From Candidatus Babeliales bacterium (lineage in GTDB: Bacteria; Babelota; Babeliae; Babelales; JACPOV01), in the NCBI GenBank assembly GCA_050250855.1, contig JBFWNW010000002.1, positions 96,001 to 160,000 of the forward strand: 64,000 bases of DNA, read 5' to 3'. Under the pieces are notes generated by a model. The model saw only the letters and a program-made list of their open reading frames with translations, had not been told where the DNA came from and did no database searches. The position numbers were made by a program, and so were the translations under genes. Positions 7,545 to 10,916 of this stretch are shown piece after piece. Within the stretch, counting starts at the first letter, position 1, and every line of letters starts with the position of its first letter.

Positions 7545-9147
7545 ATATTCTTGCTTTTTATATAAAGAATATGATGTACTTTCTATATAAAAAAAAGGAG
7601 AACCATGAAGAATCATTTTAAAAAATTACTATTGTTCGGATTACTCGGTGCAATGCCCACAATTTTTGCTGAGAAAATAAAGCTTGAATCAAGCAATGAC
7701 AAAAAGTTCGAAATCGAAAAAAAAGCCGCAGAACAATCAATAACTATTAAAAACATGTTAGCAGATATAGGTGAAGCAACTGATCAACCAATTCCTTTGC
7801 CCAATATAGATGGAGCAACGTTGGGGCATATGGTAGAATTTCTTACAAACATAGATAAAAATCCGAAAAAATATAAAAATCCTCAAGAACTAATTACTTT
7901 GATTAAAAATAAAAATTTAGATCTTGAAAATCTTATAAAAATAGTTAATGCAACAAATTATCTTGATATACCTACGCTCCTTGATGCTGCAACTACAGTT
8001 TTAGCAGAATATATCAATACCAATCCAAGCAATCTTGAAGAAAAAGTCAAAAAACTTCCTTTAGATATTCTAAAACTTGTTATGCAAAAATTAAATTTTA
8101 AAGAAACACCATTCAAAACACTTATGGAAGATAGATCTGTCACTTCAGTAGCATGGTCACCAGATAGCAAAAAGCTTGCATCAGGCTCAGATGACGGTAT
8201 CATAAAAACATGGGATACCAATACCTGGCAAAAGACACCTCTTAAAGGGCATACATCCTATGTCCATTCAGTAGCATGGTCACCAGATGGCACCAAGCTT
8301 GCATCAGGCTCATATGATGATAAAACCATAAAAATATGGGATGCCAATAACGGGAAAGAGCTCAAAATTCTTAAGGGGCATACAGGCGATATCATTTCAG
8401 TAGCATGGTCACCAGATGGCACTAAGCTTGCATCAGGCTCAAATGACGAGACCATAAAAATATGGGATGCAAAAAACTGGAAAAAGCTCCAAACTCTTAC
8501 GGGGCATGAAGGCGCGATTAATTCAGTAGCATGGTCACCAGATGGCACTAAGCTTGCATCAGGCTCACATGACGAGACCATAAAAATATGGAATGCAAAA
8601 AATGGCACAGAGCTCCAAACCCTTACAGGGCATACAGCTGAGGTCACTTCAGTAGCATGGTCACCAGATGGCACTAAGCTTGCATCAGGCTCACATGACA
8701 AAACCATAAAAATATGGGATGCCAATAACGGGAAAGAGCTCCAAATTCTTAGGGGGCATAAAGATTCTGTCTATTCAGTAGCATGGTCACCAGATGGCAA
8801 AAATCTTGCATCAGGCTCAGATGACAAAACCATAAAAATATGGAATACCAATACCTGGAAAGAGCTCCAAACTCTTACAGGGCATGAAGGCGCGATTAAT
8901 TCAGTAGCATGGTCACCAGATGGCACTAAGCTTGCATCAGGCTCACATGACAAAACTATAAAAATATGGGAACGAGAGTCTGAAATAGGAAAAAAATTAC
9001 AAGAAGTTATAAAAGAAAAAGAAAAAACAACCAAAATCTAAAACAAGAACTGCAGCTGGCAATGCATGAAATTGATTTCTTAAATAAAGAATTACAATCA
9101 TTGCAAAGTGAGCTGGATAGATTGGTAAAAATGCTGGGATAATCTAA
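7545..9147 (+). repeat. Tandem duplication unit 1 (upstream region, Skp1-WD40 gene and about 105 bp downstream)
   Basis: Upstream, 5' coding and 3' flanks near-identical to 9311-10916. Confidence 0.9.
7605..9041 (+). CDS. Secreted Skp1(POZ)-like + F-box-like + 7xWD40 protein, copy 1
   Basis: Signal peptide; IKLESSNDKKFEI..AAEQSITIKNML..PIPLPNI and ATNYLDIPTLLD resemble Skp1; LPLDILKLVMQKL; seven SVAWSPD..KIW/KTW repeats; aggag RBS. Confidence 0.9.
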   Translation: MKNHFKKLLLFGLLGAMPTIFAEKIKLESSNDKKFEIEKKAAEQSITIKNMLADIGEATDQPIPLPNIDGATLGHMVEFLTNIDKNPKKYKNPQELITLIKNKNLDLENLIKIVNATNYLDIPTLLDAATTVLAEYINTNPSNLEEKVKKLPLDILKLVMQKLNFKETPFKTLMEDRSVTSVAWSPDSKKLASGSDDGIIKTWDTNTWQKTPLKGHTSYVHSVAWSPDGTKLASGSYDDKTIKIWDANNGKELKILKGHTGDIISVAWSPDGTKLASGSNDETIKIWDAKNWKKLQTLTGHEGAINSVAWSPDGTKLASGSHDETIKIWNAKNGTELQTLTGHTAEVTSVAWSPDGTKLASGSHDKTIKIWDANNGKELQILRGHKDSVYSVAWSPDGKNLASGSDDKTIKIWNTNTWKELQTLTGHEGAINSVAWSPDGTKLASGSHDKTIKIWERESEIGKKLQEVIKEKEKTTKI

Positions 9148-9182
9148 AAGTTTATCGCAAAATTAGAAACTTTTGCAGTTTT

Positions 9183-9302
9183 ATACTTCGATTCGGGTCA
9201 AAACCCTTGCTCCCGTCGCCCCCAAGGCTACATCGGACACCGCAGGGCGAACGTTTATATTAAAGCCGTTTGTGCTGAGTTTATCCAAGCATTCGAACGG
9301 CA
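9183..9302. repeat. REP-like palindromic element (inverted, degenerate) between the two Skp1-WD40 copies
   Basis: ccgtttgtgctgagtttatccaagcattcgaacggca is a degenerate reverse complement of 15911-15947; cagggcgaacg arm also present. Confidence 0.75.
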
Positions 9303-9310
9303 GTTAAAGG

Positions 9311-10916
9311 ATATTCTTGCTTTTTATATAAAGAATATGATGTACTTTCTATATAAAAAAAAGGAGAACCATGAAGAATCATTTTAAAAAATTACTATTG
9401 TTCGGATTACTCGGTGCAATGCCTACAATTTTTGCTGAGAAAATAAAGCTTGAATCAAGCGATGACAAAAAGTTCGAAATCGAAAAAAAAGCCGCAGAAC
9501 AATCAATAACTATTAAAAACATGTTAGCAGATATAGGTGAAGCAACTGATCAACCAATTCCTTTGCCCAATATAGATGGAGCAACGTTGGGGCATATGGT
9601 AGAATTTCTTATAAACATAGATAAAAATCCTCAAGAACTAATTACTTTGATTAAAAATAAAAATTTAGATCTTGAAAATCTTATAAAAATAGTTAATGCA
9701 ACAAATTATCTTGATATACCTACGCTCCTTGATGCTGCAACTACAGTTTTAGCAGATCATATTAATGCTACGCAAACAGCTATTAATGATTTTAAAGACA
9801 AACTTCCTTTAGATATACTAAAGCTTCTTGTGCAAAAAATACCAGGAGGAACGTTTAAAGAAACGCCATTCAAAACACTTATGGGGAATACGAACACGGT
9901 CTATTCAGTTGCATGGTCACCAGATGGCACTAAGCTTGCATCAGTCTCAGATCTCAAGACCATAAAAATATGGGATACCAATACCTGGAAAGAGCTCCAA
10001 ACCCTTACAGGGCATACAGCCGCGGTCGATTCAGTAGCATGGTCACCAGATGGCAAAAATCTTGCATCAGGCTCAAGTGACACAACCATAAAAATATGGA
10101 ATACCAATACCTGGAAAGAGCTCCAAACTCTTAAAGGGCATACAGCCGTGGTCACTTCAGTAGCATGGTCACCGGATGGCAAAAAGCTTGCATCAGGTTC
10201 ACATGACAATACCATAAAAATATGGAATACCAATACCTGGAAAGAGCTCCGAACTCTTACAGGGCATACAGCCGTGGTCACTTCAGTAGCATGGTCACCG
10301 GATGGCACTAAGCTTGCATCAGGTTCACATTCACCTGACAATACCATAAAAATATGGGATGCGAATACCTGGAAAGAGCTCCAAACTCTTACAGGGCATA
10401 CAGCCGCGCTCACTTCAGTAGCATGGTCACCAGATGGCACTAAGCTTGCATCAGGTTCAAATGCATATAGCAACAATACCATAAAAATATGGGATACCAA
10501 TACCTGGAAAAAGCTCCGAACTCTTAAGGGGGATACAGCCGCGATCACTTCAGTAGCATGGTCACCAGATGGCAAAAATCTTGCATCAGGCTCAAATGAC
10601 AAAACCATAAAAATATGGAATGCAAAAAATGGCACAGAGCTCCAAACTCTTAAAGGGCATACAGCCGCGGTCGATTCAGTAGCATGGTCACCAGATGGCA
10701 CTAAGCTTGCATCAGGTTCATGGGAGCTAAAAATATGGGAACGAGAGTCTGAAATAGGAAAAAAATTACAAGAAGTTATAAAAGAAAAAGAAAAAACAAC
10801 CAGAACCTAAAACAAGAACTGCAGCTGGCAAGGCATGAAATTGATTTCTTAAATACAGAATTACAATCATTGCAAAGTGAGCTGGATAGATTGGTAAAAA
10901 TGCTGGGATAATCTAA
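9311..10916 (+). repeat. Tandem duplication unit 2
   Basis: Near-identical flanks to 7545-9147. Confidence 0.9.
9371..10810 (+). CDS. Secreted Skp1(POZ)-like + F-box-like + 7xWD40 protein, copy 2
   Basis: Same architecture as copy 1, with a different linker and different WD40 loop residues. Confidence 0.9.
   Translation: MKNHFKKLLLFGLLGAMPTIFAEKIKLESSDDKKFEIEKKAAEQSITIKNMLADIGEATDQPIPLPNIDGATLGHMVEFLINIDKNPQELITLIKNKNLDLENLIKIVNATNYLDIPTLLDAATTVLADHINATQTAINDFKDKLPLDILKLLVQKIPGGTFKETPFKTLMGNTNTVYSVAWSPDGTKLASVSDLKTIKIWDTNTWKELQTLTGHTAAVDSVAWSPDGKNLASGSSDTTIKIWNTNTWKELQTLKGHTAVVTSVAWSPDGKKLASGSHDNTIKIWNTNTWKELRTLTGHTAVVTSVAWSPDGTKLASGSHSPDNTIKIWDANTWKELQTLTGHTAALTSVAWSPDGTKLASGSNAYSNNTIKIWDTNTWKKLRTLKGDTAAITSVAWSPDGKNLASGSNDKTIKIWNAKNGTELQTLKGHTAAVDSVAWSPDGTKLASGSWELKIWERESEIGKKLQEVIKEKEKTTRT

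Follow-up and report, generated by a model that had tools for sequence, protein, structure and literature searches.

Tandem Skp1-POZ/WD40 fusion genes of a probably host-dependent bacterium, with a shared repeat framework and variable top-face codons

WD40 propellers in which a near-identical framework carries variable blades are already known, both from fungal immune receptors and from other bacterial WD40 proteins. Work by Chevanne et al. in 2010 reportedly also concerns the WD40 repeats of Podospora anserina HET-E, HET-D and NWD. In the accessible text of Paoletti et al. (2007; PMC1805685), codons 7, 9, 25 and 27 of the Podospora NWD/HET-E repeats are positively selected. Among prokaryotes, Hu et al. 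(2017; PMC5587647, as available in part) recognise a highly repetitive (HR) class of WD40 proteins with an internal repeat identity of at least 0.7, and the accessible portion of Wu et al. (2012; PMC3419727) provides a sequence rule for WD40 hotspots. Here we describe two tandemly duplicated bacterial genes whose products, inferred from their sequence to be exported, resemble a eukaryotic ubiquitin-ligase adaptor joined to a seven-bladed propeller. The same pattern of variation is seen in an unrelated highly repetitive WD40 protein, and the repeat behaviour is therefore of a known kind; the new element is its context, an apparently undescribed family of putatively exported Skp1-POZ fusions.

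The tandem paralogs, gene A (7605-9041) and gene B (9371-10810), lie in the window, by which we mean the whole 64,000-nucleotide stretch of DNA that was analysed. The features of the locus are listed below.

7441..7536, no strand: left flank, copying the 3' end of a HAD-hydrolase gene over 96 bp; direct repeat of 10931-11025
7540..7604, + strand: upstream region of A with an AAGGAG ribosome-binding site, duplicated before B at 9306-9370
7605..9041, + strand: gene A, ORF of 478 aa with signal-peptide-like N-terminus, Skp1_POZ, linker, seven WD40 repeats and helical tail
7605..7673, + strand: presumed Sec signal peptide of A, residues 1-23; by eye, a basic n-region, a 14-residue hydrophobic core and IFA/E
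7674..8021, + strand: Skp1-like BTB/POZ domain of A, residues 24-139 (PF03931, E 1.7e-16)
8022..8117, + strand: linker of A, residues 140-171; a patch strongly unlike B, then a conserved KLPLDILKL helix and FKETPFKTL
8118..8972, + strand: WD40 array of A, units A1-A7, starting at 8118, 8241, 8370, 8496, 8622, 8748 and 8874
8973..9041, + strand: C-terminal tail of A, Lys/Glu-rich, helix 460-477 in the model, 97% identical to the B tail
9044..9139, + strand: 32-codon open stretch right after the A stop, in another frame, heptad-like, duplicated after B
9148..9305, no strand: spacer between the gene units, unique and relatively G+C-rich
9371..10810, + strand: gene B, ORF of 479 aa, architecture as in A
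9878..10741, + strand: WD40 array of B, units B1-B7, starting at 9878, 10004, 10130, 10256, 10388, 10523 and 10649
10813..10908, + strand: open stretch after the B stop, the same heptad-like peptide as after A with 2 amino-acid differences
10931..11025, no strand: right flank, the 3' end of the intact HAD-hydrolase gene, repeat partner of 7441-7536
10921-11655, minus strand: intact HAD-hydrolase gene (Pfam)

The flank repeats are 91-97% identical at a spacing of about 3490, and the two-gene cassette lies between them. A repeat search finds 7540-7839 to be 99% identical to 9306-9605, and 8959-9147 to be 98% identical to 10728-10916. The spacer gives a single match to a 25-nt probe in the window and a fold z-score of -0.8; its only Rfam match is a sub-threshold snoRNA hit that lies mostly before it (9078-9151) and was scored as chance. 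Elsewhere the window carries an ankyrin protein (60039-61505), two gspD-type secretins, a PilM-like gene and a GspC-like gene; two gspD copies are reported for all TM6 genomes in the available part of Yeoh et al. (PMC4776705).

Both proteins begin with a domain that is specifically related to Skp1. Skp1_POZ (PF03931) scores 60.6 bits in A and 65 bits in B against a cut-off of 21.9, and Pfam finds no other domain in residues 1-175. The best solved relatives in the PDB are themselves Skp1 proteins: Dictyostelium SKP1a (6v88) matches residues 25-136 at E 1.9e-16, human Skp1 matches at E 2e-15 to 1e-13, and the structural neighbours of the domain in the Atlas are eukaryotic Skp1 clusters. Alignments to Skp1 stop near residue 139, and the C-terminal dimerisation or F-box-binding domain of Skp1 (PF01466) is undetected in A 1-175 and B 1-173 even when E values as high as 1 are admitted. 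In the linker of A the best Pfam match is positions 3-20 of the 43-position F-box model (PF00646), at 13.6 bits and E 0.066 with a cut-off of 20.5; the same model finds nothing in gene B. The AlphaFold model places a helix at 153-162 and a strand at 171-174, and FKETPFKTL is the source of the closing strand of the propeller. Ahead of the domain, residues 1-21 of A have pLDDT below 50 and Skp1 homology begins only at residue 24; the N-termini of relatives resemble this signal-peptide-like start. A Sec-type signal peptide alone delivers a protein only as far as the periplasm.

Neither of two scans of 185,579 species-representative genomes found a relative. The closest relative is the protein P0259, which NCBI names as coming from a Candidatus Babeliales MAG; it shares 62% identity with B, its N-terminal domain is 55% identical (E 2e-44), and it is annotated as partial, ending within its fifth repeat. 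The bacterium is probably a member of Dependentiae/TM6 close to Candidatus Babeliales, a placement drawn from this one named protein and from gene content. In a library of 1.84 billion representatives the N-terminus recurs only once more, in the 72-aa fragment P0001. A Pfam survey of 25 long proteins, picked from the best 150 of 944 matches to the N-terminal domain, returned six with Skp1_POZ and WD40, seven with Skp1_POZ and LRR, two with Skp1_POZ and Lcl_C, one with an HC2-like domain added, two with POZ only and seven canonical Skp1 proteins with both domains. Many of these have hydrophobic N-termini and an LPxEI motif ahead of the repeats, and the motifs ANYLD and PIPLPN are kept across the family.

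These same observations bear on whether the proteins instead stay in the bacterial envelope, in the periplasm or on the cell surface, where the POZ domain would oligomerise and the propeller would serve as a scaffold, with host ubiquitination uninvolved. The Sec-type N-terminus (as read by eye), the missing F-box-binding domain and the occurrence of Lcl_C, a domain of bacterial surface proteins, on some family members are consistent with such a role. We nevertheless consider it quite improbable: the N-terminal domain is no generic BTB but resembles eukaryotic Skp1 at E of about 1e-16, ANYLD and PIPLPN are maintained family-wide, and eukaryote-like proteins of Dependentiae carry signal peptides as a rule, according to the accessible part of a study (PMC6561590) that, in Chromulinavorax (Babeliales), counts signal peptides on 44% of CDS and 78% of ankyrin proteins. 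The fusions are probably hijackers of host cullin ligases that would act after export.

The original prediction described 14 WD40 repeats of about 126 bp with an almost invariant core and hypervariable codons predicted to face the substrate, and as a whole this observation is confirmed. Pfam WD40 (PF00400; cut-off 27) covers seven stretches in each protein, at 319 bits in A and 287.5 bits in B, and Tandem Repeats Finder reports a period of 126 at 8140-8971 (6.6 copies, 83% matches) and at 9897-10720 (6.4 copies, 86%). We cut 14 units, seven per gene; the 12 full units span 41-45 codons, and the last units, which run into the tail, were cut at 33 codons in A and 31 in B. The shared core holds up: a 24-nt core is found in all 14 units (10 exact, 4 with one mismatch), and the rest of the window contains no copy at up to one mismatch (0 expected from 100 shuffles). 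Invariance extends to synonymous sites as had been claimed, for 14 of the 42 regular columns are fixed in amino acid and 12 of these 14 are also fixed in codon. The insertions YDD (A2), HSPD (B4) and NAYSN (B5) were all found, B7 has a two-codon deletion and the first unit of A is degenerate. Mean pairwise amino-acid identity among units is 0.68 in A (0.41-0.94) and 0.75 in B, to be read against the HR threshold of 0.7 with the proviso that Hu et al. (2017) define the measure differently. The arrays form a closed propeller in prediction: the model of A has pLDDT 89.4 overall and about 97 in the propeller, which superposes on 7-bladed WD40 structures with TM 0.98 and rmsd 1.0 A. Its best fold matches are PkwA (5yzv) and the designed WRAP-T propellers; Nostoc 2ymu is the best PDB sequence match (E 1e-183).

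Variation between units is concentrated on the top face of this propeller. Strands a to d of the model occupy columns 8-13, 19-24, 32-36 and 42-45+1, so that the d-a loop comprises columns 2-7 and the b-c turn comprises columns 25-31. Mapped in this way, the seven columns of highest pN (7, 6, 9, 25, 30, 5, 2), as the original prediction implied, are all among the 12 top-face columns of 42 (hypergeometric 792/26,978,328, about 3e-5). The rule of Wu et al. (2012) makes columns 7, 9 and 25 the R1-2, R1 and D-1 hotspots, the three canonical contact positions; they hold 7, 6 and 6 amino-acid states. All columns with at least four states (2, 4, 5, 6, 7, 9, 25, 30) fall in the d-a loop, at the start of strand a or in the b-c turn, column 44 being the sole exception. 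Variation also extends beyond the segments before SVAW and after SGS that the original prediction named: on the bottom face the c-d loop (TNTW / ANNG / AKNG / AKNW) is di- or trimorphic, as is the a-b loop (GTK / GKN / GKK). The pattern recurs in relatives: in P0259 the four complete repeats share 85% identity, with most variation at columns 7, 9, 6 and 25, and columns 7 and 9 vary most in P0094, another family member. Column 30 becomes codon 27 once three insertion columns are taken out, and columns 7, 9, 25 and 30 rank 1, 3, 4 and 5 by pN; the comparison with fungal HET-E/NWD is thus apt, the same four codons being involved, and P0172 has the same four codons most variable as here, in P0259 and in Podospora.

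The codons at two of these hotspots had been described as AAT with all six of its neighbours at positions 1-2, plus one TGG, and that count is correct. Column 9, before SVAW, holds six ACT, one CAT, one ATT and two each of AAT, TAT and GAT; column 25, after SGS, holds three GAT, one TAT, three AAT, five CAT, one AGT and one TGG; 27 of the 28 codons end in T. The pattern alone carries little weight, because a 2-fold NNT codon offers about 8 nonsynonymous sites for each synonymous one, and zero synonymous among some 12 changes is therefore unremarkable. AAT and its single-step neighbours at two hotspot codons might also be produced by targeted hypermutation, for instance by a diversity-generating retroelement acting on AAT-type codons. 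To this we assign next to no probability: none of the 47 window ORFs scanned matches a reverse-transcriptase family, a template-repeat/variable-repeat pair is absent, and variable sites show no A enrichment (19/44 at consensus A, 19/32 at C, 13/26 at G, 10/24 at T). Within the window the missing reverse transcriptase, the missing template repeat and the lack of A bias contradict such a target.

Positive selection at the top-face codons is suggested by the sequences. Event counts give omega of about 5 for codons 7, 9, 25 and 27 (S 1 : N 22, P=0.054) and 1.46-1.75 for the top-face codons (P=0.09-0.24), and 0.5-0.7 for the codons outside it; at the hotspots pN is 0.487, compared with a global pS of 0.162 (bootstrap CI 0.099-0.232). 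Omega above 1 reaches significance in none of these counts. Low dS (0.18) together with diversity at hotspot columns is the signature of HR WD40 proteins. A different history, possible although we lean against it, is that the repeats are young and their loops relaxed, having been recently amplified and then left to drift neutrally, with no selection for specificity and no ongoing exchange. Whole-repeat dN/dS is 1.03, as would be expected of drift; among nearest-neighbour repeats, compared as six disjoint pairs, pN/pS is 0.96 overall and top-face codons show N 29.5 : S 9.5, about the neutral site ratio; the P values of the top-face excess point the same way, and in gene A alone the top-face codons differ as much at synonymous sites (pS 0.41) as at nonsynonymous ones (pN 0.36). 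In the accessible text of Hu et al. (2017) low inter-repeat dS, comparable to the value here, is taken as recent duplication, and the available part of Domman et al. (2014; PMC4209131) finds purifying, not positive, selection in chlamydial F-box/BTB families. Drift alone, however, leaves unexplained why variability peaks at the same four codons in four sets of repeats, why synonymous changes at these codons are outnumbered so heavily, why identical blocks of 15-29 nt sit in otherwise different units of both genes, and why a Skp1 part of very low pS adjoins arrays that differ far more.

Between A and B, nucleotide identity is 99.2% in the Skp1 part (pS 0.012) and 84.4% in the WD40 array (pS 0.144), and positional orthology is absent, A_i being no nearer to B_i than to other units. 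Codons 135-171 are only 71% identical, so part of the A/B difference must reflect old divergence or segment replacement and not shuffling. Exact copies of sequence blocks recur in non-corresponding units, within and between both genes, which bears out the claim that blocks appear in new combinations: GAAGGCGCGATTAAT is found at 8508 (A4) and 8886 (A7), the 29-nt NAKNGTELQ block at 8592 (A4) and 10619 (B6), and the DGKNL block at 8793 (A6), 10049 (B2) and 10568 (B6). Informative site pairs are incompatible in 49-56% of cases. Gene-conversion tests are divided: SSCF is significant (P=0.003-0.015), but PHI is so in only one of four settings (P=0.017) and the longest run is not. The interpretation originally offered for the locus therefore holds for the top-face location and the fungal parallel, but omega above 1 and recombination are not established.

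Shuffling might also be partly or wholly artificial, created by short-read chimeras of 14 units that are 80-94% identical in genes 1.77 kb apart. Exact shared cores of at least 24 nt and units in phase mean that mis-joins would preserve the frame, and the P0001 fragment and the partial P0259 suggest that such loci break assemblies. We judge this to be an unlikely source of the mosaic all the same: there are exactly seven units per gene, closing a propeller of pLDDT about 97, the hypervariability pattern is independent of unit order, and protein A is found letter for letter in the ESM Atlas, though maybe from the same record.

The reading that we favour, and hold to be probable with some reservation, combines exported single-chain imitations of SCF receptors with HR arrays whose framework is kept by exchange and whose loop codons are diverse. 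In this scheme the two tandem-duplicated genes of a host-dependent bacterium would encode exported single-chain mimics of an SCF substrate receptor, in which the BTB/POZ domain taken from Skp1 would engage a host cullin and a short helix, keeping only the Leu-Pro start of an F-box, would join it to the seven-bladed propeller. The top face of the propeller may bind a host protein, which would then be ubiquitinated or sequestered. The 126-bp framework is kept near-identical, most simply by duplication and gene conversion within and between both genes, while the loop codons of the binding surface (5-7 and 9 before SVAW; 25 and 27 around the Asp after SGS) stay different between blades and genes, perhaps adaptively. 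Domain architecture, fold, position of the variable codons, mosaic of shared blocks, contrast between Skp1 parts and arrays, and recurrence in a relative are all observed; export, cullin binding, host targets and an adaptive role of the diversity are inferred. That recombination drives a repertoire which retargets the adaptor, as first proposed, is an extrapolation from two genes. A bolder version of the favoured reading, which we regard as rather unlikely, holds that a Dependentiae lineage exports single-chain SCF receptors assembled out of a host Skp1 that was captured and an F-box/WD40 remnant, with propellers that act as a small, self-renewing repertoire by reassortment. Gene conversion between the units of neighbouring paralogs would then keep the framework identical, so that exchange stays possible, while contact codons would be kept diverse and new host-target specificities would arise via reassortment, not point mutation alone. 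If true, bacteria would have an equivalent of the fungal NLR repeat system that serves attack and not defence.

Podospora HET-E, HET-D and NWD share with this locus 42-codon WD40 units with a homogenised framework, hypervariable codons 7, 9, 25 and 27 that are paired around a conserved residue on the top face, and, apparently, units exchanged among paralogs. They are, however, cytoplasmic eukaryotic NACHT NLRs with at least 10 repeats and about 70 units genome-wide, for which RIP is a possible mutator, whereas the present genes are bacterial, carry a signal peptide-like start and a Skp1 POZ domain and have 14 units, with a nonsynonymous excess at the four codons that falls short of significance (P=0.054); in Pfam the NACHT NTPase is absent upstream of the array, residues 1-175 matching Skp1_POZ only and the remainder WD40. 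HR prokaryotic WD40 proteins resemble the arrays in low dS, hotspot diversity and, by a differently defined measure, repeat identity (about 0.7), according to the accessible part of Hu et al. (2017). Members such as Nostoc 2ymu and PkwA 5yzv have kinase, TIR, NACHT-like or no extra domains; the Skp1 POZ domain present here is on none of those described in the available text of Hu et al. (2017).

Eukaryotic SCF complexes of the Fbw7, beta-TrCP and Cdc4 type have the same elements in the same N-to-C order, namely a Skp1 BTB/POZ domain, a Leu-Pro helix and a 7-bladed propeller. The structure paper on Cul1-Rbx1-Skp1-Skp2 is said to show the Leu-Pro of the F-box in contact with Cul1. In contrast to SCF, the present proteins are one polypeptide and not two, have a putative signal peptide, and are without the Skp1 helices past H5 (PF01466) and most of the F-box. 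The NEX/PEX proteins of Parachlamydiaceae likewise couple a cullin-ligase docking module to a repeat domain, occur as tandem duplicates and are protist-associated, as the accessible part of Domman et al. (2014) describes. Both these proteins and Legionella AnkB and LegU1 carry an F-box or BTB-box with LRR, TPR or ankyrin repeats and use type III or IV secretion. AnkB and LegU1 are presumably to be grouped with the bacterial F-box/BTB-box effectors. Compared with such effectors, the proteins described here use Skp1 itself as the module and would bypass host Skp1, they carry an HR WD40 array, and their export, to go by the sequence, appears to be Sec-dependent.

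The interval singled out by the original prediction comprises the repeat portions of two tandem paralogous genes, A and B, each encoding, in order, a signal-peptide-like N-terminus, a Skp1-type POZ domain, a linker, seven WD40 repeats and a short helical tail.

Genes and bracketing repeat of the two-gene cassette
7605-9041, + strand: gene A, ORF of 478 aa
9371-10810, + strand: gene B, ORF of 479 aa
7441-7536 and 10931-11025: 96-bp direct repeat bracketing the cassette, copies 91-97% identical

The duplicated unit of ~1.77 kb takes in the upstream region with its AAGGAG ribosome-binding site (7540-7839 and 9306-9605, 99% identical) as well as ~100 nt 3' of the stop (8959-9147 and 10728-10916, 98% identical). 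On the right, the 96-bp repeat coincides with the 3' end of a HAD-hydrolase gene that is intact; its left copy overlaps the end of an orphan ORF (6797-7462). This arrangement points to a duplicative insertion or to a third unit that has decayed. The intergenic spacer (9148-9305) is relatively G+C-rich for the genome and single-copy in the window; it matched no Rfam family and its predicted fold is not unusual. Between 7400 and 11000, promoter and terminator sites were no more numerous than in shuffled sequence. Immediately 3' of each stop, in another frame, is a 32-codon open frame (9044-9139 for A, 10813-10908 for B) encoding a heptad-like peptide, QELQLA.HEIDFLN.ELQSLQSELDRLVKMLG, whose copies differ at 2 amino acids, and an A-rich run lies just 5' of both stop codons. 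The frame may be what is left of a longer C-terminal coiled coil or an extension that depends on frame; alternatively, a homopolymer sequencing error may have affected each of the two copies.

The Skp1-type POZ family (PF03931) is the sole Pfam family matched in residues 1-175, at 60.6 and 65 bits in A and B against a cut-off of 21.9. The best solved relatives of this part are Skp1 proteins (Dictyostelium SKP1a, E 1.9e-16 over residues 25-136; human Skp1 structures, E 2e-15 to 1e-13), and eukaryotic Skp1 also forms the nearest structural clusters of the ESM Atlas model. The F-box-binding C-terminal domain of Skp1 (PF01466) was absent from both proteins in the Pfam search. In the linker, a conserved helix, KLPLDILKL, finds its best Pfam match in the F-box profile, over positions 3-20 of 43 and in gene A only, at 13.6 bits, far under the threshold of 20.5; we take a possible F-box remnant here as a lead from sequence and not as a result. 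In the predicted model (pLDDT 89.4 overall, ~97 in the propeller) the seven repeats close into a propeller that superimposes on seven-bladed WD40 structures with a TM-score of 0.98 and an rmsd of 1.0 A. The N-terminal ~23 residues look signal-peptide-like by eye, and residues 1-21 are unmodelled in the predicted structure. That the two proteins are envelope scaffolds with no relation to ubiquitination seems improbable to us beside these Skp1 matches.

The Skp1-like domain matches 944 proteins at E <=1e-3 in a library of 1.84 billion representatives. Most of the best 150 of these are of ordinary Skp1 size, and Pfam was run on 25 long proteins picked from among them: seven are canonical Skp1 with both domains, two carry POZ only, and the others join Skp1_POZ to LRR (7/25), WD40 (6/25), Lcl_C (2/25) or an HC2-like domain (1/25). 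The N-termini of the fusions are hydrophobic, and an LPxEI motif often precedes the repeats. The place of the F-box partner is taken by WD40, LRR or Lcl_C. The closest relative among the matches listed is P0259, a partial protein of 335 aa named by NCBI as from a Candidatus Babeliales MAG, which is 62% identical to B (55% in the N-terminal domain, E 2e-44). Neither the N-terminal domain, searched at near lengths against a 5.8-billion protein index (no match), nor the family alignment, searched against longer proteins of that index (2 matches, both already known), extended the family, and of the pattern stretches in species-representative genome contigs, 82 with the single N-terminal domain and 79 with a 5-sequence alignment, none was confirmed by tblastn. 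We found no described bacterial Skp1-domain protein in a literature whose coverage is thin for subscription journals, and the Skp1-POZ fusion family may be undescribed. Three other proteins (P0177, P0228 and P0229) were rejected as family members for their weak Skp1-part match (E 0.002, 23% identity). These are paralogs of 644-681 aa on one 224-kb contig, with near-identical N-terminal halves, highly repetitive WD40 arrays bearing different hotspot residues, and a common C-terminal LSWEQALLL motif; they may amount to a similarly designed, larger repertoire belonging to a different organism.

The 14 units (A1-A7 and B1-B7) were cut from the two genes and codon-aligned. As predicted, they share an almost invariant core: a 24-nt stretch occurs in 14 of 14 units (10 exactly, 4 with one mismatch) and nowhere else in the window. 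DNA identity among units is 67-94%. The amino acid is invariant in 14 of 42 regular columns, and in 12 of these 14 so is the codon. The alignment also bears out the use of AAT and all six of its single-base neighbours at positions 1-2 before SVAW and after SGS, the insertions YDD, HSPD and NAYSN, and, by exact coordinates, the recurrence of sub-repeat blocks. DSSP on the model places strand a at columns 8-13, b at 19-24, c at 32-36 and d at 42-45 plus column 1, which puts columns 2-7 in the d-a loop and 25-31 in the b-c turn, the two elements of the predicted top face. In the available text of Wu et al. 2012 (PMC3419727), contact residues R1 and R2 sit between two V/L/I residues, R1-2 is found two positions ahead of R1, and D-1 precedes the tetrad Asp; by this rule columns 7, 9 and 25, with 7, 6 and 6 amino-acid states, are the three canonical contact hotspots. 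The seven columns of highest pN (7, 6, 9, 25, 30, 5 and 2) all fall within the 12 top-face columns of 42, which by our own arithmetic has a chance of ~3e-5. Bottom-face loops vary too, but between two or three forms only.

dN/dS peaks where expected and is high for a protein, but omega >1 is not demonstrated with 14 units.

Substitution in the WD40 units (dN/dS, Nei-Gojobori over all 91 unit pairs; omega and P, minimal-event counts)
Whole repeat: dN/dS 1.03
Framework core: dN/dS 0.45
Segments predicted to vary: dN/dS 1.54
Three hotspots: pN 0.487 against a global pS of 0.162 (bootstrap CI 0.099-0.232)
Top-face codons: omega 1.46-1.75, P 0.09-0.24
Other codons: omega 0.5-0.7, not in excess
Codons 7, 9, 25 and 30: omega ~5 (S 1, N 22), P 0.054

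Against selection, pN/pS is 0.96 in six disjoint nearest-neighbour unit pairs, where top-face codons show a roughly neutral ratio of N 29.5 to S 9.5, and in the loop codons of gene A synonymous difference is as large as nonsynonymous (pS 0.41, pN 0.36), unlike in gene B (pS 0.10, pN 0.29). These values lend some weight to a rival reading that we regard as rather unlikely, in which the repeats are young and their loops, being unconstrained, simply drift neutrally. Synonymous variants number 4 over 12.4 core sites and 13 over 16.9 other sites (P=0.09, a trend only). Because synonymous difference is higher inside loop codons, the data fit old loop variants on a repeatedly homogenised framework better than recent point mutation. 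Targeted hypermutation has next to no probability, since no reverse-transcriptase family was matched by the 47 ORFs scanned in the window and variable sites are not A-enriched; adenine mutagenesis of the diversity-generating retroelement type was rejected on the same observations.

The predicted shuffling of modules fares unevenly in tests of gene conversion. Identical blocks of 15-29 nt occur in otherwise different units, within A and between A and B, and phylogenetic incompatibility affects 49-56% of informative site pairs. The Sawyer-type SSCF statistic is significant (P=0.015 with 12 units, P=0.003 with 10), as is PHI in one of four settings (P=0.017), but no recombination was indicated by PHI at window 10 or by the test of the longest concordant run. 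Comparing A with B part by part says more.

Nucleotide identity between A and B by part
Signal peptide and Skp1 part: 99.2%, pS 0.012
Linker patch: 71%
WD40 arrays: 84.4%, pS 0.144, pN 0.16
Tail: 97%

Each A unit is no nearer to its positional counterpart in B than to any other unit. Two histories would account for this: recent homogenisation of the flanks of two old paralogs, or a recent duplication followed by replacement or scrambling of the middle. Both are forms of concerted evolution. That the linker patch, which is not repetitive, also diverges speaks against repeat shuffling as the whole explanation. This patch (8019-8051 in A, codons ~139-149; 9767-9799 in B) is almost wholly different, NTNPSNLEEKV against NATQTAINDFKD, with flanking sequence 88-99% identical; the Skp1 parts differ by a six-codon indel (KKYKNP). 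A partly chimeric assembly would be another source of such a mosaic, and we give it little credence.

The window is bacterial chromosome of ~36% G+C with housekeeping genes and tmRNA, and no tRNA was found in it.

Other features of the window
14588-15877: UvrC-like ORF of only 429 aa
25381-33957: secretin cluster, comprising a GspC-like gene, a gspD-type secretin (881 aa), a PilM-like gene (539 aa), an orphan (189 aa) and a second gspD-type secretin (852 aa)
45739-45946: cluster of 11-nt TTATCCACA-type (DnaA-box-like) repeats in both orientations
57288-60029: two orphan ORFs (335 and 453 aa) adjoining the ankyrin gene, no Pfam or NCBIfam match
60039-61505: ankyrin-repeat protein

Cumulative GC skew turns near 45.8 kb, at the DnaA-box-like cluster, which is likely a replication origin; no dnaA gene adjoins it. 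UvrC profiles are 574-698 positions long; the UvrC-like ORF aligns to them in two stretches, of which the best stops near profile position 250, and it may be truncated or split. A family match was absent in 13 of 20 ORFs in the scan that included the ankyrin gene, and this gene and the orphans beside it may be further host-interaction genes. Placement in Candidatus Babeliales rests on the name of P0259, the two gspD-type secretins with PilM- and GspC-like genes, the ankyrin protein and the many orphan ORFs; two gspD copies are described as a trait of all TM6 genomes (PMC4776705). In Chromulinavorax, a member of Babeliales, signal peptides are reported on 44% of CDS and 78% of ankyrin-repeat proteins, and Sec export has been proposed (PMC6561590); by analogy with these figures, a signal peptide on a eukaryote-like protein would be unsurprising here. 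The secretin cluster is a possible exit route for Sec-exported proteins, and the accessible literature yielded no description of a type III, IV or VI secretion system in Dependentiae.

Taken together, we think it reasonably probable that A and B are exported single-chain mimics of SCF substrate receptors, carrying a diverse binding surface on a conversion-homogenised framework, where cullin binding, export and targets are what we infer. In this scheme a host cullin would be the docking site of the Skp1 part and the target would bind to the top face of the propeller, the bacterium supplying adaptor and receptor in one chain that plugs directly into the host cullin, and conversion would homogenise the framework while the binding surface stays diverse. 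Dependentiae are widespread parasites of protists for which, to our knowledge, few means of host control have been described. If real, an exported Skp1-POZ fusion family would offer a concrete, testable route of host control, and the repeat pattern singles out codons 7, 9, 25 and 27 in every blade as those expected to determine target specificity.

Repeats that behave in this way have been seen before. Among the four complete repeats of P0259, which share 85% identity, variation is greatest at columns 7, 9, 6 and 25; in P0094, another member of the family, it peaks at columns 7 and 9, and in P0172, a highly repetitive WD40 protein that lacks Skp1, at 25, 27, 6, 7, 9 and 5. Given the P0172 pattern and the account in the available text of Hu et al. 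2017 (PMC5587647), in which highly repetitive WD40 repeats are conserved save at hotspot sites and dS is low, the behaviour is of a known kind. The accessible part of Paoletti et al. 2007 (PMC1805685) describes repeats of the Podospora NWD/HET-E family in which the d-a loop and b-c turn likewise make the top face and codons 7, 9, 25 and 27 are positively selected. Because column 30 is codon 27 once three insertion columns are removed, our columns of highest pN include exactly these four codons. The design of a conserved framework with variable contact codons, known from the WD40 arrays of fungal NLRs, is thus met again in bacteria, in a protein whose presumed purpose is the opposite.
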